This document shows, one piece after another, positions 38,118 to 64,000 of a stretch of 64,000 nucleotides of DNA. The DNA is taken from NCBI GenBank assembly GCA_010093815.1, contig ML996565.1; one strand, written 5' to 3'. Made by a program: the position numbers and the translations under genes. This DNA is from Pseudovirgaria hyperparasitica. Taxonomy: Eukaryota. The first letter of the stretch is position 1; each line of letters begins with the position of its first letter. The notes under the pieces are model-generated. The model was not told the origin of the DNA. It did no database searches and worked only from the letters and a program-made list of their open reading frames with translations.

Positions 38118-38722
38118 CGGGTTTCACTTCGGCGCTGGTGTATCGATCTTGGTTTACCCAGATAGATGTGCCTATACCCTTTTTGAGCGCGACTCTTAGT
38201 AGTATAAGACGGTATATAACTACACTACTTCATGATGACTGTATGTTAACGCATAGTACTAAAGAGTTTGCGCTGAAAAAATCATAGCTGGGCGGACGAC
38301 CTTTCCGAGGTATCACTACTTCTAGCTAGTGGTGTTATATACACTGAAGGGATCAACGTAAGCCATGATTGAACAATGGGACCTTGAAAAATAGAGGTTT
38401 ATTTTGAGCTTCTCGCTGACCTGGTATGTGTAAATGATCCCTTGGACTACTTTTCTCCTTTGACGGATGGCACAGTTATGCTACGCATTATGCAACATCT
38501 CATCAAACACCAAGATAGCGATATGGTGACGTGACATTAAGAACTCAAATTACGATACTGAGAACAGTATATACAATGTTTGCTCACAGGTCCTTTAGAC
38601 ATAAACATTCGCACACGTTCGATCCATAGCTAAATTCCCATGCAAACGCCTTGGGCCATGATTGAAAGCCGTCTATGACCTCCCAGGATATGCTGCTCCA
38701 ACCCATTACGTCTACAAGCTAT

Positions 38723-39707
38723 CTAACAAGAACATCCTTGGTCAGGATAGTCGCGATTCACGTCAATCGTGGTATCGGGAAAGTCGTTGCTGAAGTCCCC
38801 GGCTTCTTCTTGGGCGAGGGCTTGTCGGGCGATAACTAAGGTTATGTTCAGCTTGCTACGATGGTATGAGCGAACGGGTCGTGGGTATTACCTTCGAATG
38901 CGTCTTCTACGTTCAAGGCTTCCTTTGCACTCGTTTCGAAATATGGTATGCCGCCTTTTGATTGGCAGAATGTGGATGCACGCTTTGCCGAAATCTTGAG
39001 TCTGTCAGCTATGACGCCCTTCAATAGCATAATGACAGAAACACATACCACCCGCTTCTCCTCGCCCATATCAATCTTGTTGCCTATCACGACCTGTAAA
39101 GCAGTTAGCCACAGGATAGGAAGCTACACAGTACCCGTAGGCCTACAAATGGAAAGCTTTCCGGGTCCATAGGACTGGCCTGAACCAAGAATTCATCTCG
39201 CCAGCTGTCTAGTGTATCGAAACTCTTGGAGTTGTTGACATCATAGACCAGTACACAACAGTCCGCGCCTCGGTAGAACGCAACTCCTAATGACTGAAAT
39301 CGTTCTTGACCAGCAGTGTCCCATAGCTACGCCACATCAGTCTAGTGTTTGTTTCGAGTATGTGAAGTCTCCTAACTGACCTGCATGGTCACCAGTCTGT
39401 CATCTATCAACACCTCTTTCGTGAGAAAATCTGCGCCTATCGTAGCTTTGTAACTTGCGCTGAACTTCTTGTTGACCTAATCACATTCATATATGAGCCT
39501 ACGTCTATTCTATCGGACGATATCTTGATCTTAGCGTTCTGCGTCGAGAGGCCTTACGTATTGATTCATCAGACTGGTCTTGCCGACGCCACTGTCGCCG
39601 AGAATTATGACCTACAAAGACAGTGTCAGCAGTATTCCCATAGCTTTACAGTGTGATGTTGGGTTTTTCCAAACCTTCAGAAGGACTTTCTTGTTGCGGG
39701 TAGTCAT
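38723..39707 (-). CDS. YPT7: Rab7 GTPase, 7 exons
   Basis: [54 protein letters not shown]-terminal CSC. Confidence 0.97.
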
Positions 39708-42352: not shown

Positions 42353-43267
42353 GCCAACATGCCCTCGTGAGCACTACTGGCAGTATGTCAAGAAGCGTTC
42401 AATGCTCCCCTGTGACGGAGAAAAAGAACGATTCGACATTAGGAACGGACGAGGCCGCGAGTCAACAAAGTTCAAGATCTGGAGCTGATGCGAACGACAG
42501 CTGGTGGACAAGCCAGCCCCCACCGTTCGAGACTACTGATGGATCTCATTTAGGGGAGTTTGTCCCGTGACTTGGCCGCTTAGGATAGGCCAGACAAATA
42601 CGAGCAGAGAAAAACAGACAGGCAGGCAGACAGGCAGCAGGTAACATCTCACACCCTCTCCCGCTCCCTCTCTCCAAAACAACTGCATACTAGAGAAGTA
42701 GGATTCTTCTCGTTTGTCAGCCTCTGACCCCGGGCCCGGACGCAGGCTGACGCTGTATCAGAGAGATTTTAGCTGCTATAGCCGATCCCTCGGGTTTGGG
42801 CTGCTTATGCTTATTCTGCCGCCCAGACACTCCGCCGCACTATGAACTTCTCGCCTTTTTCCGCGCAGTCCAGCTAACCCCAATCTCGACACCTGGCTGC
42901 ACATCACCGTTCGCCTATCTTCTCTTCTATTATAACAGCAACACAACAGCTTGCTGGAATACGGGACAGAGTACATCTCAATACATGCGCCCAATCAGAT
43001 CTGTCTCACTACTACCGCTGTACACCTCAGTATAATCAGTCATCATCAGTGCCGGGCCTTGATATTCGCACCAACCCCAGCTTCACCAGCGGTATAAGAC
43101 CACGCCCACCAATGACTATCAAGAAAACACTCTCGCGAGCTCCTCCTTTATCATCGTCATAACGGTCCTTGGTTCAGTGGCTTCACATCCCAGCAAGCCA
43201 ATTAATAAAGATATACAGCACCTGCGCCCTTCGTATTCGGCTCCCGGCCTGCTTGTCGCAAGTCATC

Positions 43268-44900
43268 ATGGCTTGGTCCGCTGTTTTCGTCATCTCACTC
43301 AGTGCGTTCTCGTACTACCTCCTCAGGGTCGTTTACCGCCTCTTTATTCACCCTCTCTCAGAGCTGCCAGGTCCCAAGCTGGCTGCTGTCACCTCTCTCT
43401 ACCAGGCTTATTATGACACGCTGGTGGGCAGAGACGGTGGCTGTTACACGACTCAGGTTGTCCAGATGCACAAGCGCTACGGTTCTATCGTAAGGACTGG
43501 GCCTAACGAGGTCCATGTGAATGATCCAGACTTTGCTGATATCCTTTTATCTGCCAAATTGAAGACTACAGGCAAACATCTCTATTCGAGGAATCTCTTT
43601 GTTGAGACTAGTGTAGGCAAAATTATCTATGATCAATGGGGTTATAGTACTTACAGATACAGTCTCAAGTACGTGATACTACCGCTCAATATTTCTCTGC
43701 GTCGGCCGTCATAGAGCGAGAGTCTCTTATTCATCGATATGCTCAGAAGTTCTGCGACCAAGTCGAAGCTAATTGGGCTGGCGAGAGCCCGTTAGACCTT
43801 GTAGACGCTTACTCGTGCTTTGCCGTAGATCTCCTCAGCGACTACTGCCTCAGCAAGCCTTTCACGACACTAGATGATCGTACTTTCAAAAGCAGTTTAC
43901 GGTCACAGTGCTTGGCTGACATCAAGGCAGCCAGGAGCTCGCAATATTTCCCTTTTGCGAGAATATTCGCCCCTCGATCTCCTCTCCTTACTACCCTTCT
44001 CCATCAAACAACAAGTACAGAACTTACCACCCGTCCATCCCAATCGACCTCCTCTCCACCCCGTCTCAGTCTCATTCAAACACTCATACGCACCTCACTT
44101 CCGCCCCGGTCTAGCACCACACCTTCAGGCTCCTCTGCCATCGCCCTCAATATCACCTCTTTGAATCTCTACGCCGAGCACATCCACTCCCTCCTTCTCA
44201 CTTTCACCGTCCCCGTCTCCACCACCCTCGCCCTCGCAACACACCAGCTCCTCTCCCATCCTCGTTTCCTTGCTCGCCTACGTGCCGATCTGACTCCTTA
44301 CGTGCTTGATCCAACACATCTCCCGCCTATGGAAACGCTGCGCAAGATACCGTACATGACGGCGGTTCTACATGAGAGTCTGCGGCTGTCGTGTGGAATC
44401 ACGGGTCAAATAGGGACTGTTGCAGCAGAGCCCGTGGTGTATACAGATGAGAAGGCAAGGGACGGGAAAGGAGGCAGCGGGAAGAAGGAGTACGTACTGC
44501 CGCCCGGCACACGAATCAGTACATCATCCGTGAGCTTGCACAGTAACGCGAGTGTATTTCCCGAACCCGCGCGCTTTGCACCACAGCGCTGGTTACACGA
44601 CGGTAAGCGGCGCGAGAATCTAGAGAAGTATCTGATTCCCTTCGGGCGTGGAGAAGGACGGTATGTCGCTGCCGAGTAAGTCTCCCCTTATACATCGTTC
44701 TATACGGCACGGATATGCACTAATAGAGCAGGCTCGCGATGAGCGCGCTTTACGTGTGCCTCGCAGCAGTTGTGATGAGACTAGCAGCCAAGATGAAAGT
44801 GCACGACACGAGTGTGGCAGATGTGCGGTCTAGAAGAGAGGATTTTGGGAAGTTTCTGCAGGGAGTGGAAAGAGCACGGGTTGTGGTTAGAGAGAGCTAA
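43268..44900 (+). CDS. Cytochrome P450-fold protein lacking the heme-ligating Cys, 3 exons
   Basis: N-terminal TM anchor, HPLSELPGPKLAAVT, YGSIVRTGPNEVHVNDP, ESLR (ExxR), FPEPARFAPQRWL, PFGRGEGRYVAAE-LA. Introns at about 43613-43662 and 44676-44731. Confidence 0.85.
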
Positions 44901-45583
44901 ATGAGATTTTGGGGCCAACCTCGTCCATGGATTGACAATCAAAGCTGAATCCAAAAGTGATAGGTCCAATTTGACATTCATCCATTCACGCTTTAGGGAC
45001 CTCGTACGTCCATGTGAAGAGCAATGACCGAAGTCGTGCCGGGCAGTCGGGACCGATATTATCTAGCATGGAAATAGAAGTAGAGATTCGCAAATTGCCG
45101 GGTTCGGCTGCGAGAAGCCGAGTGCAGAGCAAATGGCTGCTCTCCAGGACCTTGTAGGGTTAGATTCATGCTGCAGTGTCGAGACAGACTACTGGCAAAG
45201 GAGTCTTATGATATGAGTAAGGGCATGTAAGAGCTACCCTCAAAGTCAGACAAATCATATATAACGATGCAGACTGGTGACGGGTAATGAAATTTATGAG
45301 TAGCGACTATTCTGGGACTCCGAGCAGAACAGCCCTGCACTGATAATCACATCGCAGATGCACATCATCAAAGTTGTGTAGATGGACAAAGCAAAGTTTT
45401 CCCAGCAATTCCTGCCTGGGCTGTACAGCAGTACTTAACAGCCCCTCTGGTCTCGACCGAGTCTAAAATTACACCATATTGTACGTTCCATGCAACCGAT
45501 AATTTATTGACAGAAGATTTGACGAAGCACTTCCTCTAAGCCCAGTGCCCGTCATGGTGCATGATGAAAGCGAAACGATACGC

Positions 45584-46128
45584 TTATGCGACGTAGAGGA
45601 GGAGGAAAGACATCATGAGAGCGAAGAGACCTGTGGCTTCGGCGAAGGCAAAACCCAGAACGGCGTATTGGAAGAGCTGAGCCCTTAGGGAAGGGTTGCG
45701 GGCAACACCCTGGATGAGGGCACCGAAGACAGATCCAATACCAACACCAGCACCAGCGAGACCAACGGTAGCGATACCAGCACCCTGGATCTTGGCGGCG
45801 GCAACCATGGCGGCAGCGGTGGACTCAGCAACGATACCGCGCTGTTGAGTGATCTGACGGGCGACGTTCGAGGTCTTGAAGGCCTGGCGGGCGTTGTTCA
45901 TCATCAGACCGTTGTTGCGTACGGGGAAGCGGGCACCTGGGAATTGAATGTCAGTAACAATTGAGGTTGTCAAAAGATATTCCGATGCAATTGATGATAG
46001 CAATCGATGAATTGTTGTAGGAACGCACCCGAGGTTGAGATGAAGCGAGACGCTGGCTTGACAGCTGCGGAACGAACAGCAACACGGGCGGCAGAGCCAT
46101 TGACCCGGGCAAGGACTGGAGTGACCAT
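45584..46128 (-). CDS. ATP9: Nuclear-encoded ATP synthase subunit c (subunit 9) with mitochondrial presequence, 2 exons
   Basis: [34 protein letters not shown]; Arg/Ala-rich presequence [15 protein letters not shown]. Confidence 0.97.
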
Positions 46129-57744: not shown

Positions 57745-58475
57745 GAATAGATATGCCTTATTGCAAAGAAGTAGAGACAAGATCTCATGTCAGGATTCGC
57801 TCAATTTGTGTGAGCAAAATGCCACTCGCGGGATTTGAAGCGGTCCTTCATCCATGAGGGTTTGCGAGACACGGATGAAACCCGTAGAAGAGAAGTACCG
57901 AACGGTGGATAAGTCGAACATTGTTCTCAATGCTCAAATGAAACCAATTTGTTTCCAGGTGAACGGCGATGCCTGCGGTTTGGACGGGTACTATCGATGT
58001 GCGTAGGAGATATAGCGGCGGGCCTGGGGTATGCAGGCGACAAGGCAAGTGGAACATCGTTGGATGCAGGGTGCACTATTGATTTATTTCAGTCACAATA
58101 CACATCATGATGCGTCTACAAGTGATCGGGGAATTTAGAATTGCCAATGCTGCCACGCCACGGGCAAACGACCTTCATATCACCTATTTTAAGAATTTTG
58201 TCGTTAACCTGTATCTCCCAGCACCGTTCATTCCAAGTATAGAGGTATGACGTCAATGACCGCTCGAGGAAACTTTACAATCCGTCCGTAACTTTTTCAG
58301 CGCAACTCTTGGCATGCACGCCTATGCGCGACATAACGTTTTTCCATAGTAAATGAGCATTTTGAACATTATCGTGCATAGCAGCCATAACGTCGTAAAA
58401 TACGTCGAATCTACGTATATAGGCACTCATTAGCCTCATCTCTATATTATATAATACTTAAAATACCTCTAAACC

Positions 58476-59111
58476 ATACCTATAGCGCGTCGTAGCGGTA
58501 AGAGGGCTCGTTTTAGTAGGCCGCTTAAGATACCCGACTACTTAATAGAGGCTCCTCCTCCTCCTTAAACGCGTTATATATATTAACTAATAGTAAGGGC
58601 GATAGTAAGCCGTAGTTAGGTAGTCTAAAATAGGAAGTCTAAGAGCAAGACGGCGAATAGTATACTAGCTCCTATTATTAAATATACGGCTAGTATATCT
58701 AATTATAACGCGAATGCGGTAGAGATACTTATCTCTATACTATAGGCGTTAAATAAGGTAATAGATATACATTTATCGCTATCGCCGTTATATAGTAATA
58801 AGTATAATATAGAAAATGAGTCTCCTCTATTAAGTTCTTCTATAGCTATTACTCTCTTTATACTATATCTAATATTAGTACTTTATATTAATAGAAAGAA
58901 GGAGAAATAGAAGAATCTATCTTTAACTCTACGCGAGTTCTAGATACTAGATAAGACTAAGAATAAGATAAATAAGGCTATATAAGAGATAGTTATTAAT
59001 AAGTCGTAGGAGTTCGATGGAAAAACGTCTCTAGTTATCTAATCTTAGTCTACCTTAAATAAGTATATATACTTAATAGAAGTCTTATTCGCCCTTATAG
59101 ATAAGGTTAAG
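58476..59111 (+). pseudogene. RIP-mutated ORF of an unidentified repeat, cut by the Gypsy LTR
   Basis: aaacc-ATA (formerly ATG) followed by 212 codons in one frame; all stops are TAA/TAG; strong TpA excess and CpA/TpG loss. Confidence 0.6.
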
Positions 59112-59339
59112 TGTTAGGACTTAGTCTTAGGTATAATCTAATCCGTATATACCTTAGCTAATAGGGTTAGGAGGTAGCGGGAAGGGCGGTAAATAGTTAT
59201 ATACTAGATAGATTAGCGTCCCTTTATATATATACTCTTAGATTTCTACTAAAAGGGTTCGATAGTAATTCATTCTATAATAGAATATACTCTATTATTC
59301 TATCTAACTATACTACTATCTAATAACCCTATTCTTATA
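59112..59339 (+). repeat. Putative 5' LTR of the Ty3/Gypsy element
   Basis: Starts TGTTAGGA and ends TCTTATA (RIP form of TG...CA termini); TATA at about 59224. No second LTR in the window to confirm. Confidence 0.6.
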
Positions 59340-61760
59340 TTCGAATTACTCCCTATATAGTACTATAGTTAAGATAGTCTAACTAGAACCGAGAAGGTCG
59401 ACACGATCTACTATAGGGATAAGTAATACTATATTAAATAATAGGGATCCTCTATAATTAGTATTAATCCCGGCCGTTTCTAACTAAGAAGTAGAAATAT
59501 TAGACTAAATCACGGAGCTTTTAGACGAAGAAATAGTAGAGACGCTAAGTAACTTCTAATAATATAAAGCCGGATAATAAGTCGTGGCGGAGCCACGCGA
59601 GATATTATAATAAACTATCGCTAAACTTTAGGAATACGTCGTAAATTAGGCTTAAGAGATTTAAACCCTTAAAGAATAGGTAGAACGCGCGAAACTCCTC
59701 GTAAAGAGACGAGAACTTAAGGAGTCTCTTAAAGAACTACGCTAAATAATAGTAGGTGGACGACTTCCTATACTAATTCAGACGGAATTAGTTCACCTAC
59801 CATTAGAGTTACGATAATCTACCATATACCCGGCCGCTTTATTACCGATTTACCCTACTCCTTCCCTAGATATACTAAAATCTAAAGACCCGACTATATT
59901 TATAGGGAAGAACTAAAAGGAGTAGAAAGACTAGAAGAGAGACTACGAAAAGTACTTCCTTAATAACCCTCTACTCTTTTCTACTAAAGTATAACGCATT
60001 TCGTTTAGAGAACGATACCTAGACTTATAATCCCGCGATTAATAGGATAGATAGAAGGAAGTATAGCTACTATCTACGATAACCTAGGAATATTTAGCTA
60101 TATTTATACTAAACACCCTCGGAACAGATAGAGAACGTGAAAGAAAGGCACTATCTAAGTTAAGAAGCGTGGTATAACGACCGAACTAGACACCTACTTA
60201 ACTACTATAATACCTCTAAAACCTATAGAATAATATCCCTATACTATAGGAAAATATTTATATATTCTAGTTTCGCGAAGTACTACTTCTGTTAATCCAC
60301 GAAAGACTAGAAATAATATTATTAAGTTTTAACTATCTATACGAATTAGAGGAGAAAGCTAATAAATACTACTATATCCTTAAGGAACGCGGCTCTCTAG
60401 GTAAAACCGACGAACCCTATACGGGTTAGAAACGAGGTTAATTAAATACATTTAATTAAGAGTAACCTTACTATAATTAGCGCTAGAAGAGCGTAAATCG
60501 GGGTAGAAACGTGTTAAGAGAACACTAAAATAATTAAGGCGGTGCTTCTTAACGCGGAAAAGAATAAGGTATAGACTTAAATATAACGCCTATCGTAAAA
60601 TAGTAGGATTATAGCGTACTTCGTTACTATAAGTATAGAGAAATAGAATATATTTTACCTAACTATAAGAATCTAAAAAAAGAATAGGCTAGTACACGAG
60701 ACCTAACCGCGTTCTTAGCTAAATTATATATACTTAGAAGGAGCCGTAGCGCCTTCCGGCGAGTAAAGACCTAATATTACTAAAAGTATCGTTACCTATA
60801 GTAAATAGTAATAAAACTATATAGGCCCTCGTGGATACTAGTATAGAAGATAACTATATTTTATTAATTCTTATAAAGGAGTATAGATTATTATATAATC
60901 TCGGTAAAGTTAGCCGAACTATCATAGTTAATAGATATAAAGTTAGAACTTTAGGTAAAGCTATAATAAATTATAAAGTTCATGACTCGAAGATAATAAA
61001 ATAGTAGATGTCTAATGAATTTATCGTGGCTAATATTAGCTAATAGAATATGATTCTAGAGATGCCTTAGCTTAGACGCCTAAACCCTATCCTTAATTTT
61101 TAGAAGGAGATATTAACGTTCTAACGATACCGTAGTAAATTATACTAGTAAGTCGTAACTATTAGTAAGGAGGCATGGAACCTTACCGTGCGGACCTAAT
61201 CGTCGCTAATCTATCTTACGTCCTTATCGATCGTCGATAAAGATAAGGACGATAGTAATAATCGGGGCGAAGACACGCTATCTAACGTATATTTATAGTA
61301 TATAGATATATTTTTAGTAGGAGATACGTTACTTCTCCCTAATCATAGACTATATAAGCTAAAGATCGAGCTCGAAGAGGGAGTAGACGTCCCTTATAGC
61401 CTACTTTACCTACTTTTAAGACTAGAACTCGAAGTTCTTTATAAATATATTAAAGAATACCTCGAAAGAAGCTAGATACGTTATAGTATATTATTAGCCG
61501 GCGTATCTATTCTCTTTGTAAAGAAGAAAGACGGAAGTTTATATCTATATGTCGACTATTAGGCACTAAATATAGTAACTAAGAAGAATTATCACCTATT
61601 ACCGCTAGTTAGTAAATCTTTAGACTAATTAATAAAGGTAAAGTACTTTACAAAGCTAGATTTACGAGATATATATTACCGACTTTAAATTCGTCGCGGA
61701 GATGAGTAGAAAACCGCATTTCGGACTAGATATAGTTATTTTAAGTATACTATTATACTA
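59112..61760 (+). mobile_element. RIP-degraded Ty3/Gypsy (chromovirus-like) LTR retrotransposon: gag, protease, N-terminal RT
   Basis: Gag knuckle RYYKYREIEYILPNY (de-RIP CxxCxxxxHxxxxC); protease ALVDT; RT LFVKKKDGSLYLYVDY*ALN, FTKLDLRD and KTAFRTRY. Confidence 0.92.
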
Positions 61761-64000
61761 CTAAAAAAACTTCTCATACCCCAACGGACCAAACTAGTTA
61801 ATTCGGGGTAAAATAGCGATTTATATACATTAAACGATAGAGTATACCGAGTATAACAACCTCTAATACACGTGCGTACATGTAGTATATAATACACGAC
61901 GATACCGACGTGTAGAGATACTATATATATATACTCGAAGACTCTTCGATAATATAAGTATAGACTATATCTAATAAACGCCGACACGCTGACCCCCTTT
62001 TATTAGTTAAGGGCTACCCTTAACTAATAACTATAGCGGCCTTAGGTATCGTAATACCCCGGTATACGCTAGATATACCCCTACTAGTACGGTAGAAACG
62101 GCTATATAGTAATATTAATATAGATAGCTAGACACCTATCTAAAATATAGAAACTAACTAAGGGTGCAAAGCGCTATAGATAACCTAGACTAAGGGGACC
62201 CTAAGAGGGGAGACCCTCCTAGATAAAATTAAATACTAGATAATATATATAGAGAGGGACGCTAAGGAGGGAAAGAAGACCCTCCTTTATATATTCCGGG
62301 ACCTTATCCGGAACCTAAGAGGAATCACGGAGGAAGAAAGAAAGTCGCCACGAGAGGAACCTAGTAGTAGACTCGACTAAATAGAAGCTAGTCTATAGAG
62401 AATCTAGGAAGAGCTATTCTAAGGTAAGCGCCCTAACACGTGGGCTTAGATTATAGTAATACCCGGAGCTACCGTACTAAGGACTACTAGGACCATAGAT
62501 AGAGTATATAGTATACGTGTCGTAATCTAGGATAAGGACACGCTAGCGTAGGTCTAATAGGCATCCCTAAAGGAAATTATAAATAAGATTAATAAATAGA
62601 AAGGAATATAGTTAAGCGTCGTAGCTACTAAAGTTACGCTAGGTAGGGTAGTACTTACTACTATAATGAATACTACGTAGTAAAACATCTCGCGAGATCC
62701 GAACGCGATAGGTAGTATCTTCCCTAGCGCGTCTATTAGGGTAGCTATATACCCGATTATAGTATACGTAGTACCCGTGTAGGGATAGGCTATCGGAGCG
62801 GAGGATATTACGCGTATAGAATAATCTAACACGCGAAAATACCTAGGGATTAAGATCGTAAAAGCGTGGTAGAAGAACCTATAGACGATTAAGACGACGG
62901 CGAAAAAACACTCTACTATAATTATAGAGCTCCGAGACCCCGCCCTCGTATAATATATTATATAGAAGGGATTTCTAATAGAAGGAGAGCTCCTTATGGC
63001 CGAGCTATAGAATAGGGCATGGGTAATAATATAGTACTTTAACTATTAAGGGTATAGATATACTATATAAAGGTACTTATAGAAGACTAAGTGCGGATAG
63101 TACCGTAGGGACCACGCTACCTAGGAGTACCCTTATGAACCGCGAGGAGACGGACTAAGAAATAGGGATATAGTATAGTATTTAAACTACGATGGGAAAC
63201 ACCCGTCGTAGTCATTAATATATATAAAATATAAATAGATTATAGAATATATTCGCACGATAAAAGTAAGAGGCGTGAGATAGTTATAGAATATAATATC
63301 TACCACGAGCCCTTCCTTTATAATACCCCTAACCTCCCCTCCGGAAGGTAGTTAGGTAGGATAGTAGACTATCCCAAAGACGATAGGACGACTAAAAGGC
63401 ATAGTTAAAGCCGCTACCGCGCGAGGATAGTCGCGCCTCTAAGGAATAAGTATATAGATATATATACTCCCTAGTACCTAATAAGGGACTAGAATATACT
63501 CTAAATTATATAGGTAAACATATAATATAAAAGAGAGAACTAGGCGACGCTCCTCGAAGAGACCGGGGCTATAATACTCGCTATCTAGGAACTCTATAAA
63601 CACTACTAGACGAGTAAACCAACTATACACCCCGGATACCATACTATATACCCTCTAGGACTAGAAAGACGAGTCCTCTTCCATATTTATAGGTTAATAC
63701 TACTCTTATTATAGTCGTATACCGAGCGCGATAACCTTAGGATAATACTACACCTATAAATAGATATAGGCCCCCTATATATATATAATATATATAACTA
63801 ATAACGTATACTTATACTAGATAAGATGCTTAAGGGTACTATAGAACTAGGGTAATACATCCTTCTAGGAGACTTTAACCTCTACTACTAATAGTAGAGA
63901 GGCCTAGCCATAGTTAGGGAAGAACTTAGAGTAAGGGAACTACGCACCCGCTACCACGACTTCCTATACCTACTTATACCTATAGAATAAGTTATATAGA
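61761..64000 (+). mobile_element. RIP-degraded LINE (Tad1-like): ORF1 zinc knuckles and ORF2 APE endonuclease; runs off the window
   Basis: De-RIP reading gives QCFNCQGYGH, KCGWCRGDH and CLNCDGKHPSW at about 63030-63230; ORF2 has LAI*ELY (AIQEP) and LLGDFNL at about 63860. Confidence 0.88.

Follow-up and report, generated by a model that had tools for sequence, protein, structure and literature searches.

The analysed window is a stretch of 64,000 nucleotides from Pseudovirgaria hyperparasitica (contig ML996565.1), a fungus whose genus is described as a mycoparasite of rust sori (PMC3317363). At 43268-44900 it holds a P450-fold gene of three exons (1527 nt, 508 aa; Table 1), the translation of which equals the NCBI protein P0001, has a single, terminal stop, is annotated at NCBI as 'cytochrome P450' and forms a cluster of one. 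Its surroundings are housekeeping genes: on one side it converges on ATP synthase subunit c, and on the other it diverges from an unclassified minus-strand gene (start 42352). A Pfam scan of 27 of the 69 open reading frames in the window identified PalH, Urb2, the nuclear ATP synthase subunit c and a Zn2Cys6 factor; neither a glycosyltransferase nor a biosynthetic gene was found among these 27 frames, and no biosynthetic cluster is apparent from them near the P450 gene.

Contigs from four sequencing runs (two samples from two studies, one sample possibly being the source of the assembly) were aligned to positions 42500-45500, and in all four no letter differs from the window. Runs X1 and X2 contain the introns and are unspliced. 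Runs X3 and X4, which come from one sample of unrecorded run type and are the sole source of RNA support, have joints at 43612-43663 and 44675-44732, both GT..AG; as both introns are absent from their contigs, X3 and X4 stem from spliced RNA. The P450-fold gene yields a spliced transcript with an open frame of 508 codons, which answers the RNA part of the expression check proposed in the original prediction and upholds its description of splice sites and frame as intact, with no stops or frameshifts. Because the letters are identical in all runs and the contigs are spliced, the TAT codon at 44662-44664 is real in both DNA and transcript; the sequencing error at 44663 that had been raised as a concern is rejected by four of four runs. 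Mis-splicing that hides a Cys-bearing exon is rejected as well, the RNA joints giving the 508-aa model and no frame of the locus holding the Cys motif.

Table 1. Features of the P450-fold locus (window coordinates).
Feature	Positions	Strand	Remarks
Partial non-coding 5' exon	42685..42697	+	13 loose letters upstream of 42762 in X3, matched by eye, then GT; one contig only
Probable 5'-UTR intron, 64 nt, GT..AG, branch-like site	42698..42761	+	From the 13-letter loose end of X3, no listed joint
Transcribed long leader with four upstream ATGs (ORFs of 11-16 aa)	42762..43267	+	X3 and X4 coverage
Coding exon 1, aa 1-115: TM anchor, proline hinge, helix A, beta-1, helix B	43268..43612	+	Well conserved until about aa 90
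Intron 1, 50 nt, phase 0	43613..43662	+	Joint in X3 and X4; 11-residue deletion before helix C at junction
Coding exon 2, aa 116-453: helices C-K, changed I helix, ExxR, PxRW, heme loop	43663..44675	+	
I-helix codons 295-300, TFTVPV replacing AGxETT	44200..44217	+	Counted from exon 2 start
Codon 367, Thr replacing beta1-4 propionate-binding Arg	44416..44418	+	Counted from exon 2 start
Codon 447, Gly replacing heme-loop Arg	44656..44658	+	Alignment
TAT, Tyr449, axial Cys position	44662..44664	+	Alignments and run contigs
Intron 2, 56 nt, phase 2	44676..44731	+	Joint in X3 and X4
Coding exon 3, aa 453-508 and stop: helix L, C-terminal strands	44732..44900	+	
3' UTR to limit of X4 contig	44901..45082	+	X3 continues toward convergent ATP synthase subunit c gene

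The probable leader intron fixes the strand of the transcript. The leader is at least 519 nt long, and its four upstream ATGs may damp or regulate translation. At the other end, the X3 contig extends from the 3' end of the P450 gene beyond 45500 (44900-45584) toward the ATP synthase subunit c gene, and overlapping 3' UTRs of the two genes are possible; a contig across two genes does not show a single transcript. Two features of the splice sites stand beside these. The Tyr codon is located within a consensus 5' splice donor (GTATGT, 44661-44666), 15 nt upstream of the used donor. Splicing there would cut out five codons, Tyr449 among them, and keep the frame; it was not seen among the run contigs, which drop rare forms. 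In intron 1, AG acceptors near 43648, 43657 and 43662 share one phase; splicing uses the last, and acceptor sliding may explain part of the 11-residue deletion at this junction. By the usual index thresholds the gene shows no signature of RIP (TpA/ApT 0.96, substrate index 1.07, GC 0.53, higher than its neighbours), and its codon usage (0.022 per codon, neighbours -0.011 to 0.032) is uninformative.

In an AlphaFold2 model, the protein begins with a transmembrane helix at residues 2-27 (19-residue hydropathy 1.66 at 4-22). The hinge (P29, P34-G35-P36) and the ExxR (E353, R356) and PxRW (P422-x-R424-W425) motifs are kept, with E353, R356, P422 and R424 invariant in all 128 rows of the alignment described below. 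The transmembrane anchor, PGP hinge, ExxR and PxRW, listed as intact from the start, are accordingly confirmed. P0001 matches PF00067 with 102 bits against a cut-off of 22.8 and scores 343 bits with the family HMM. The AlphaFold2 model, built with an alignment, has a pLDDT of 88.8 and a pTM of 0.91, a confidence that borrows from functional relatives; an independently made Atlas model has a pTM of 0.83. Against solved P450s the AlphaFold2 model reaches Z 31.1 at best (rmsd 3.3 over 411 residues), and Foldseek returns at least 500 matches at E <= 0.001, with P450s in every row among the matches listed. Structure prediction of the polypeptide, one part of a check suggested earlier, yields a P450 fold. 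Retention is uneven along the chain: 30-residue windows at 31-90, 301-360 and 391-420 have 0.87-0.97 of the identity expected for the family, and the most changed windows, at 271-300 (0.28 of expected identity), 91-120 (0.54), 361-390 (0.64), 241-270 (0.66) and 451-480 (0.68), mostly line the heme and substrate pocket.

P0001 was aligned with 127 of its 149 best relatives (128 rows), the other 22 having been omitted for odd length or broken motifs. The heme loop reads PFGRGEGRYVAAE followed by LA, with the TAT codon inside it, and the encoded Tyr449 falls in a gap-free column that holds Cys in 127 of 127 relatives. Alignments to the family HMM and to the solved P450 5ylw agree, again without gaps, in placing Tyr449 at the axial Cys, and the Cys-to-Tyr replacement at the center of the original prediction stands. 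A shifted register, with Val450 at the Cys position, would need two indels and is at odds with all three alignments. No Cys occurs between residues 360 and 461 of P0001. The change from Cys to Tyr is a single base, a one-step transition from a Cys codon.

The loss extends well beyond the axial position. Among 17 positions with a heme or catalytic role, 11 have changed, and five of the replacements require at least two base changes. This set of positions is drawn from what we take to be established P450 structure, as are the propionate roles, and on this basis the changes would affect the axial ligand, the acid-alcohol pair, three out of the five residues that bind the propionates and some of the surface on which the reductase docks. 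The propionate roles are backed by published work (PMC7159065). Two of the five propionate ligands, Lys103 and Arg119, are kept, as are Phe442, Gly445, Leu454 and Ala455 in the heme region; His115 (His in 113 of 127 relatives), the beta1-4 residue Arg367 (now Thr; Arg in 122 of 127) and Arg447 in the heme loop (now Gly; Arg in 122 of 127) are lost. The heme-loop Arg had been read as displaced, and it is indeed lost, but by replacement (Gly447), Arg448 standing at a variable position; the beta1-4 Arg is a further loss beyond that reading. In the I helix, Ala295 has become Thr (Ala in 122 of 127 relatives), Gly296 Phe (Gly in 119 of 127, the remainder Ala or Ser), Glu298 Val and Thr299 Pro (Thr in 112 of 127), so that the A/G-G-x-E/D-T motif is absent and TFTVP stands at 295-299. 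The motif had correctly been called altered, AGTETT mapping to TFTVPV, but the STT that follows is not the TT of the motif, and the register had to be corrected. Similarly, the C-helix motif described as missing has lost His115 and Arg118 together with about 11 residues at the intron 1 junction, but retains its terminal Arg119. Gly451, present in 124 of 127 relatives, is Ala in P0001, a change that is not lethal in itself because Ala occurs there in Cys-bearing relatives too.

Larger changes accompany these substitutions: the chain has lost about 11 residues ahead of helix C, gained about 14 ahead of helix I and suffered further losses in F-G. The C-helix segment contains two Lys or Arg residues, compared with a family median of six and a minimum of three among 116 proteins, in part an effect of the deletion. 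In human aromatase (CYP19A1), the same Cys-to-Tyr change (C437Y) leaves 0% activity, and loss of the equivalent Arg375 alone abolishes activity, with heme loss named as a consequence (PMC7159065). We infer from its sequence that P0001 would be unable to hold heme or activate oxygen.

The search for relatives leaves P0001 isolated. A word search with exon 2 returned only itself among 2740 candidates, and HMMER searches of 1.84 billion representatives found best relatives at 24-38% identity, the highest full-length identity being 33%, below 40%; membership of a named CYP family requires over 40%. A scan of metagenome contigs gave 58 pattern matches, none of which was confirmed. No ortholog was found by word search, HMMER or metagenome contigs, and the search for a shared Cys loss that the original prediction had called for came back empty. 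Among the 149 nearest relatives, 147 keep the Cys, and in the two Cys-less rows (P0043 and P0098) the motif is missing altogether, which suggests errors in the gene models; a search from the best relative added 116 further proteins, all with Cys. Hence none of these 149 and 116 proteins lacks the Cys with the motif otherwise present. The genome itself is rich in P450s (105 Pfam matches), and the Cys motif is present in all 52 other locus records, which overlap and one of which (L054) may owe its match to a neighbouring gene.

In a 49-row tree, the terminal branch of P0001 measures 1.61, three times the median of 0.51, and no sister is supported. A recent duplication of another P450 in the same genome is rejected, none of the five nearest paralogs being sister to P0001, with the caveat that long-branch placement is unsure. 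The relatives carry labels such as trichodiene oxygenase-, otaC-, yanH- and sdnE-like, which are automatic names rather than assays, and we take the group to belong to the CYP58 clan. Ascomycete microsomal P450s such as Trichodelitschia KAF2395907.1, Microthyrium KAF2667975.1 and A. nidulans AN6407 share with P0001 the fold, anchor, hinge, ExxR, PxRW and family-typical stretches; they keep the Cys, whereas P0001 has lost it along with three propionate ligands and the I-helix motif, and is at most 33% identical. As a separate observation, one P450 of the same genome (L009/L051, G000:C6:1287043-1290597) has the Cys with the following Gly changed to Ala (CxA), an arrangement also found in 4 of 116 database relatives.

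Does this pattern reflect decay? The reading that fares best after ours is a decaying, still transcribed pseudogene, in which the enzyme was killed by Cys to Tyr or a similar change and an open frame has since survived, either through luck or because truncated membrane proteins are weakly selected against. The one-base nature of the change, the inactivity of the aromatase equivalent, the failure of word search and HMMER to find an ortholog, the four upstream ATGs in the leader and the many other P450s in the genome would all suit it, and genome scanning favours lucky surviving open frames. The divergence is also widespread. At a 98% cut-off, 32 of 50 invariant scaffold columns are kept, and in the nearer family (116 proteins: 109 of the 116 new matches and seven earlier ones) retention barely tracks conservation, at 0.67 in the most conserved columns and 0.42-0.62 in variable ones. 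Such low retention at conserved columns implies a much relaxed constraint, although part of the effect comes from counting the deleted segment as scaffold. Against a broad reference set, heme positions are kept less often than others (6 of 16 versus 63 of 83, p 0.005); against the nearer family the contrast (6 of 14 heme positions, 59 of 98 others) is not significant (p 0.26; 0.22 and 0.32 at stricter cut-offs). Judged from these comparisons, constraint on P0001 looks weak.

Nevertheless, the open frame is difficult to reconcile with decay. Eight starting relatives were evolved under a simple neutral mutation model to P0001's identity to the family (1200 runs), and acquired 8.5-20.7 nonsense mutations on average; P0001 has none, and 1 of 1200 runs remained stop-free. 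P0001's level of hydrophobic core columns was reached in 0-2% of neutral runs, its profile score in 6-16% for three starting points, and its count of invariant columns kept in up to 33%, so that the last two do not lie beyond neutral expectation. Because the ancestor may have been divergent already, the heme sites were used as a clock. For the most lenient set, seven strict heme positions, the probability of losing three or more multiplied by that of meeting no stop is at most 0.004 (0.0006 with an assumed 3% of indels), and for 16 heme positions the joint probability is near 1e-5 or below. Indels relative to the family are all in frame and alternative frames fit no better; a compensated frameshift behind the Ser/Thr/Pro-rich F-G region is rejected, other frames scoring below zero there. 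Stops, frameshifts, broken splice sites and RIP damage, the marks of a pseudogene, are absent. We therefore regard decay as unlikely. All readings other than decay taken together, it is likely that P0001 is a selected protein, an assessment based on the simulations and the open frame of this orphan gene. The original claim that this is not a fresh pseudogene is supported by the 11 heme or catalytic changes, five of them needing at least two base changes, by the long branch, by the open, spliced frame and by a hydrophobic core above that of the neutral simulations.

Taking these observations together, P0001 is probably a heme-free, ER-anchored pseudoenzyme under relaxed selection. It would descend from a 'trichodiene oxygenase-like' group of ascomycete microsomal P450s. 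The former heme space would be narrowed by the larger residues Phe296, Tyr449 and Ala451 and by the shortened B'-C segment, and depletion of the basic reductase-docking patch on helix C would prevent electron uptake. The predicted protein would be held in the ER membrane and could be retained by relaxed selection since it would act by binding. Its likeliest role, by analogy with bacterial P450-derived glycosyltransferase activators, would be that of a scaffold or activator bound to a partner protein at the ER membrane; the binding of a hydrophobic ligand is a second option.

Precedents for parts of this scheme exist in bacteria. AknT and EryCII, members of the PDGAF group, lack the axial Cys and activate or scaffold glycosyltransferases, as described in PMC10054333 and PMC11703216. 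Like P0001, they have a P450 fold without axial Cys and, in those accounts, without heme, and offer a model for action by binding. However, they are bacterial, soluble and paired in an operon with a glycosyltransferase gene, whereas P0001 is fungal, membrane-anchored and separately derived, its nearest relatives being ascomycete microsomal P450s with a transmembrane anchor rather than the PDGAF group. P0001 would thus stand outside the bacterial activators, yet may work like one. The second of these papers, a bacterial survey, counts 880 non-canonical CYPs in 20 subfamilies, all bacterial, that share with P0001 the P450 fold and a non-Cys axial residue (PMC11703216). These form multi-member families, and the Ser- or Sec-ligated ones bind heme. 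Membership of that type would call for another ligand in an otherwise intact pocket, but P0001, eukaryotic and without family members, has a degenerate pocket in which 11 of the 17 positions differ.

Among eukaryotes, the P450 domain of A. nidulans PpoC, a peroxidase-P450 fusion, is reportedly Cys-less. Further examples are the six members of oomycete CYP5619D, Cys-less P450 domains of peroxidase-P450 fusions (PMC5919972). These eukaryotic domains resemble P0001 in lacking the Cys, but are fused to an active heme dioxygenase, whereas P0001 is stand-alone and membrane-anchored. Aromatase C437Y is the identical substitution at the heme ligand, but a single disease allele of an otherwise intact enzyme, compared with at least 11 changes in P0001. 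On its sequence, P0001 lacks the features that define a P450 monooxygenase (axial Cys, full set of propionate ligands, I-helix motif) and yet has the fold, the anchor, ExxR and PxRW.

The original prediction had also allowed for a non-canonical hemoprotein. On this reading Tyr449 would serve as the iron ligand, and the protein would have a catalase- or peroxidase-like or heme-buffering function. Tyr stands exactly at the axial position in three alignments, Lys103, Arg119, Phe442 and Gly445 are kept, and Arg448 adjoins Tyr449, much as catalases have an Arg next to the Tyr that binds the iron. Natural Ser- and Sec-ligated P450 folds bind heme, and no Tyr family appears in the available text of the bacterial survey describing them, its figures and supplement possibly differing (PMC11703216). 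The loss of His115, Arg367 and Arg447, when loss of the single Arg375 is reported to abolish aromatase activity (PMC7159065), and the presence of Phe296 over the heme site, where all 127 relatives have Gly, Ala or Ser, speak against iron ligation, as does the inactivity of aromatase C437Y in that source. Tyr needs no adaptive explanation either, since it is one transition away from a Cys codon, and we consider a Tyr-ligated hemoprotein very improbable. Least probable of all is a cofactor-free enzyme with a cavity remodelled for non-redox chemistry (isomerase, cyclase or dehydratase), which would fit the concentration of change in pocket-lining segments, as neofunctionalisation predicts, and the new polar residues of helix I, e.g. 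His288 and His290, but which, in an orphan, has no conserved new catalytic residue to point to and, amid housekeeping neighbours, no pathway.

Bacteria are known to have functional P450 folds free of heme, and some eukaryotic fusion enzymes to contain P450 domains that lack the Cys. A literature search, mostly outside subscription papers, turned up no account of the gene for P0001, and none of a fungal P450 that is Cys-less, anchored in the membrane and stand-alone. If P0001 is made and selected, the microsomal P450 scaffold would have a heme-independent use in eukaryotes, and fungal P450 inventories would contain non-enzymes. A broader and more speculative proposal, which we hold tentatively and at somewhat less than even odds, is that fungi repeatedly recruit microsomal P450s as regulators or scaffolds, stand-alone, ER-anchored and free of heme, which genome annotations list among ordinary P450s, with P0001 a transcribed, selected example. 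That such a fungal group might be the eukaryotic counterpart of the bacterial P450-derived activators is an analogy we would likewise offer with some doubt. The significance of P0001 is limited by its being a single orphan, and it presents a natural test case for Tyr heme ligation in a P450 fold.

Elsewhere in the window, the region 58000-64000 falls to a GC content of 0.33-0.39 and contains no open reading frame of 100 aa. The divergent minus-strand neighbour of the P450 gene (40540-42352) is a multi-exon gene 915 nt from the P450 start. None of its three exon pieces matches a Pfam family, and it has no homolog among 3156 longer candidates, no Atlas match and no paralog in its own genome at E < 0.4; on these searches it appears as orphan-like as the P450 gene itself. 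Its N-terminal FAFI...RSHV and DPFD stretches resemble, in our judgment, fungal transcription-factor-like proteins without a zinc cluster. Further along the minus strand, at 38720-39707, lies a multi-intron gene that we recognised by eye and take to encode a Rab7/Ypt7-like GTPase.
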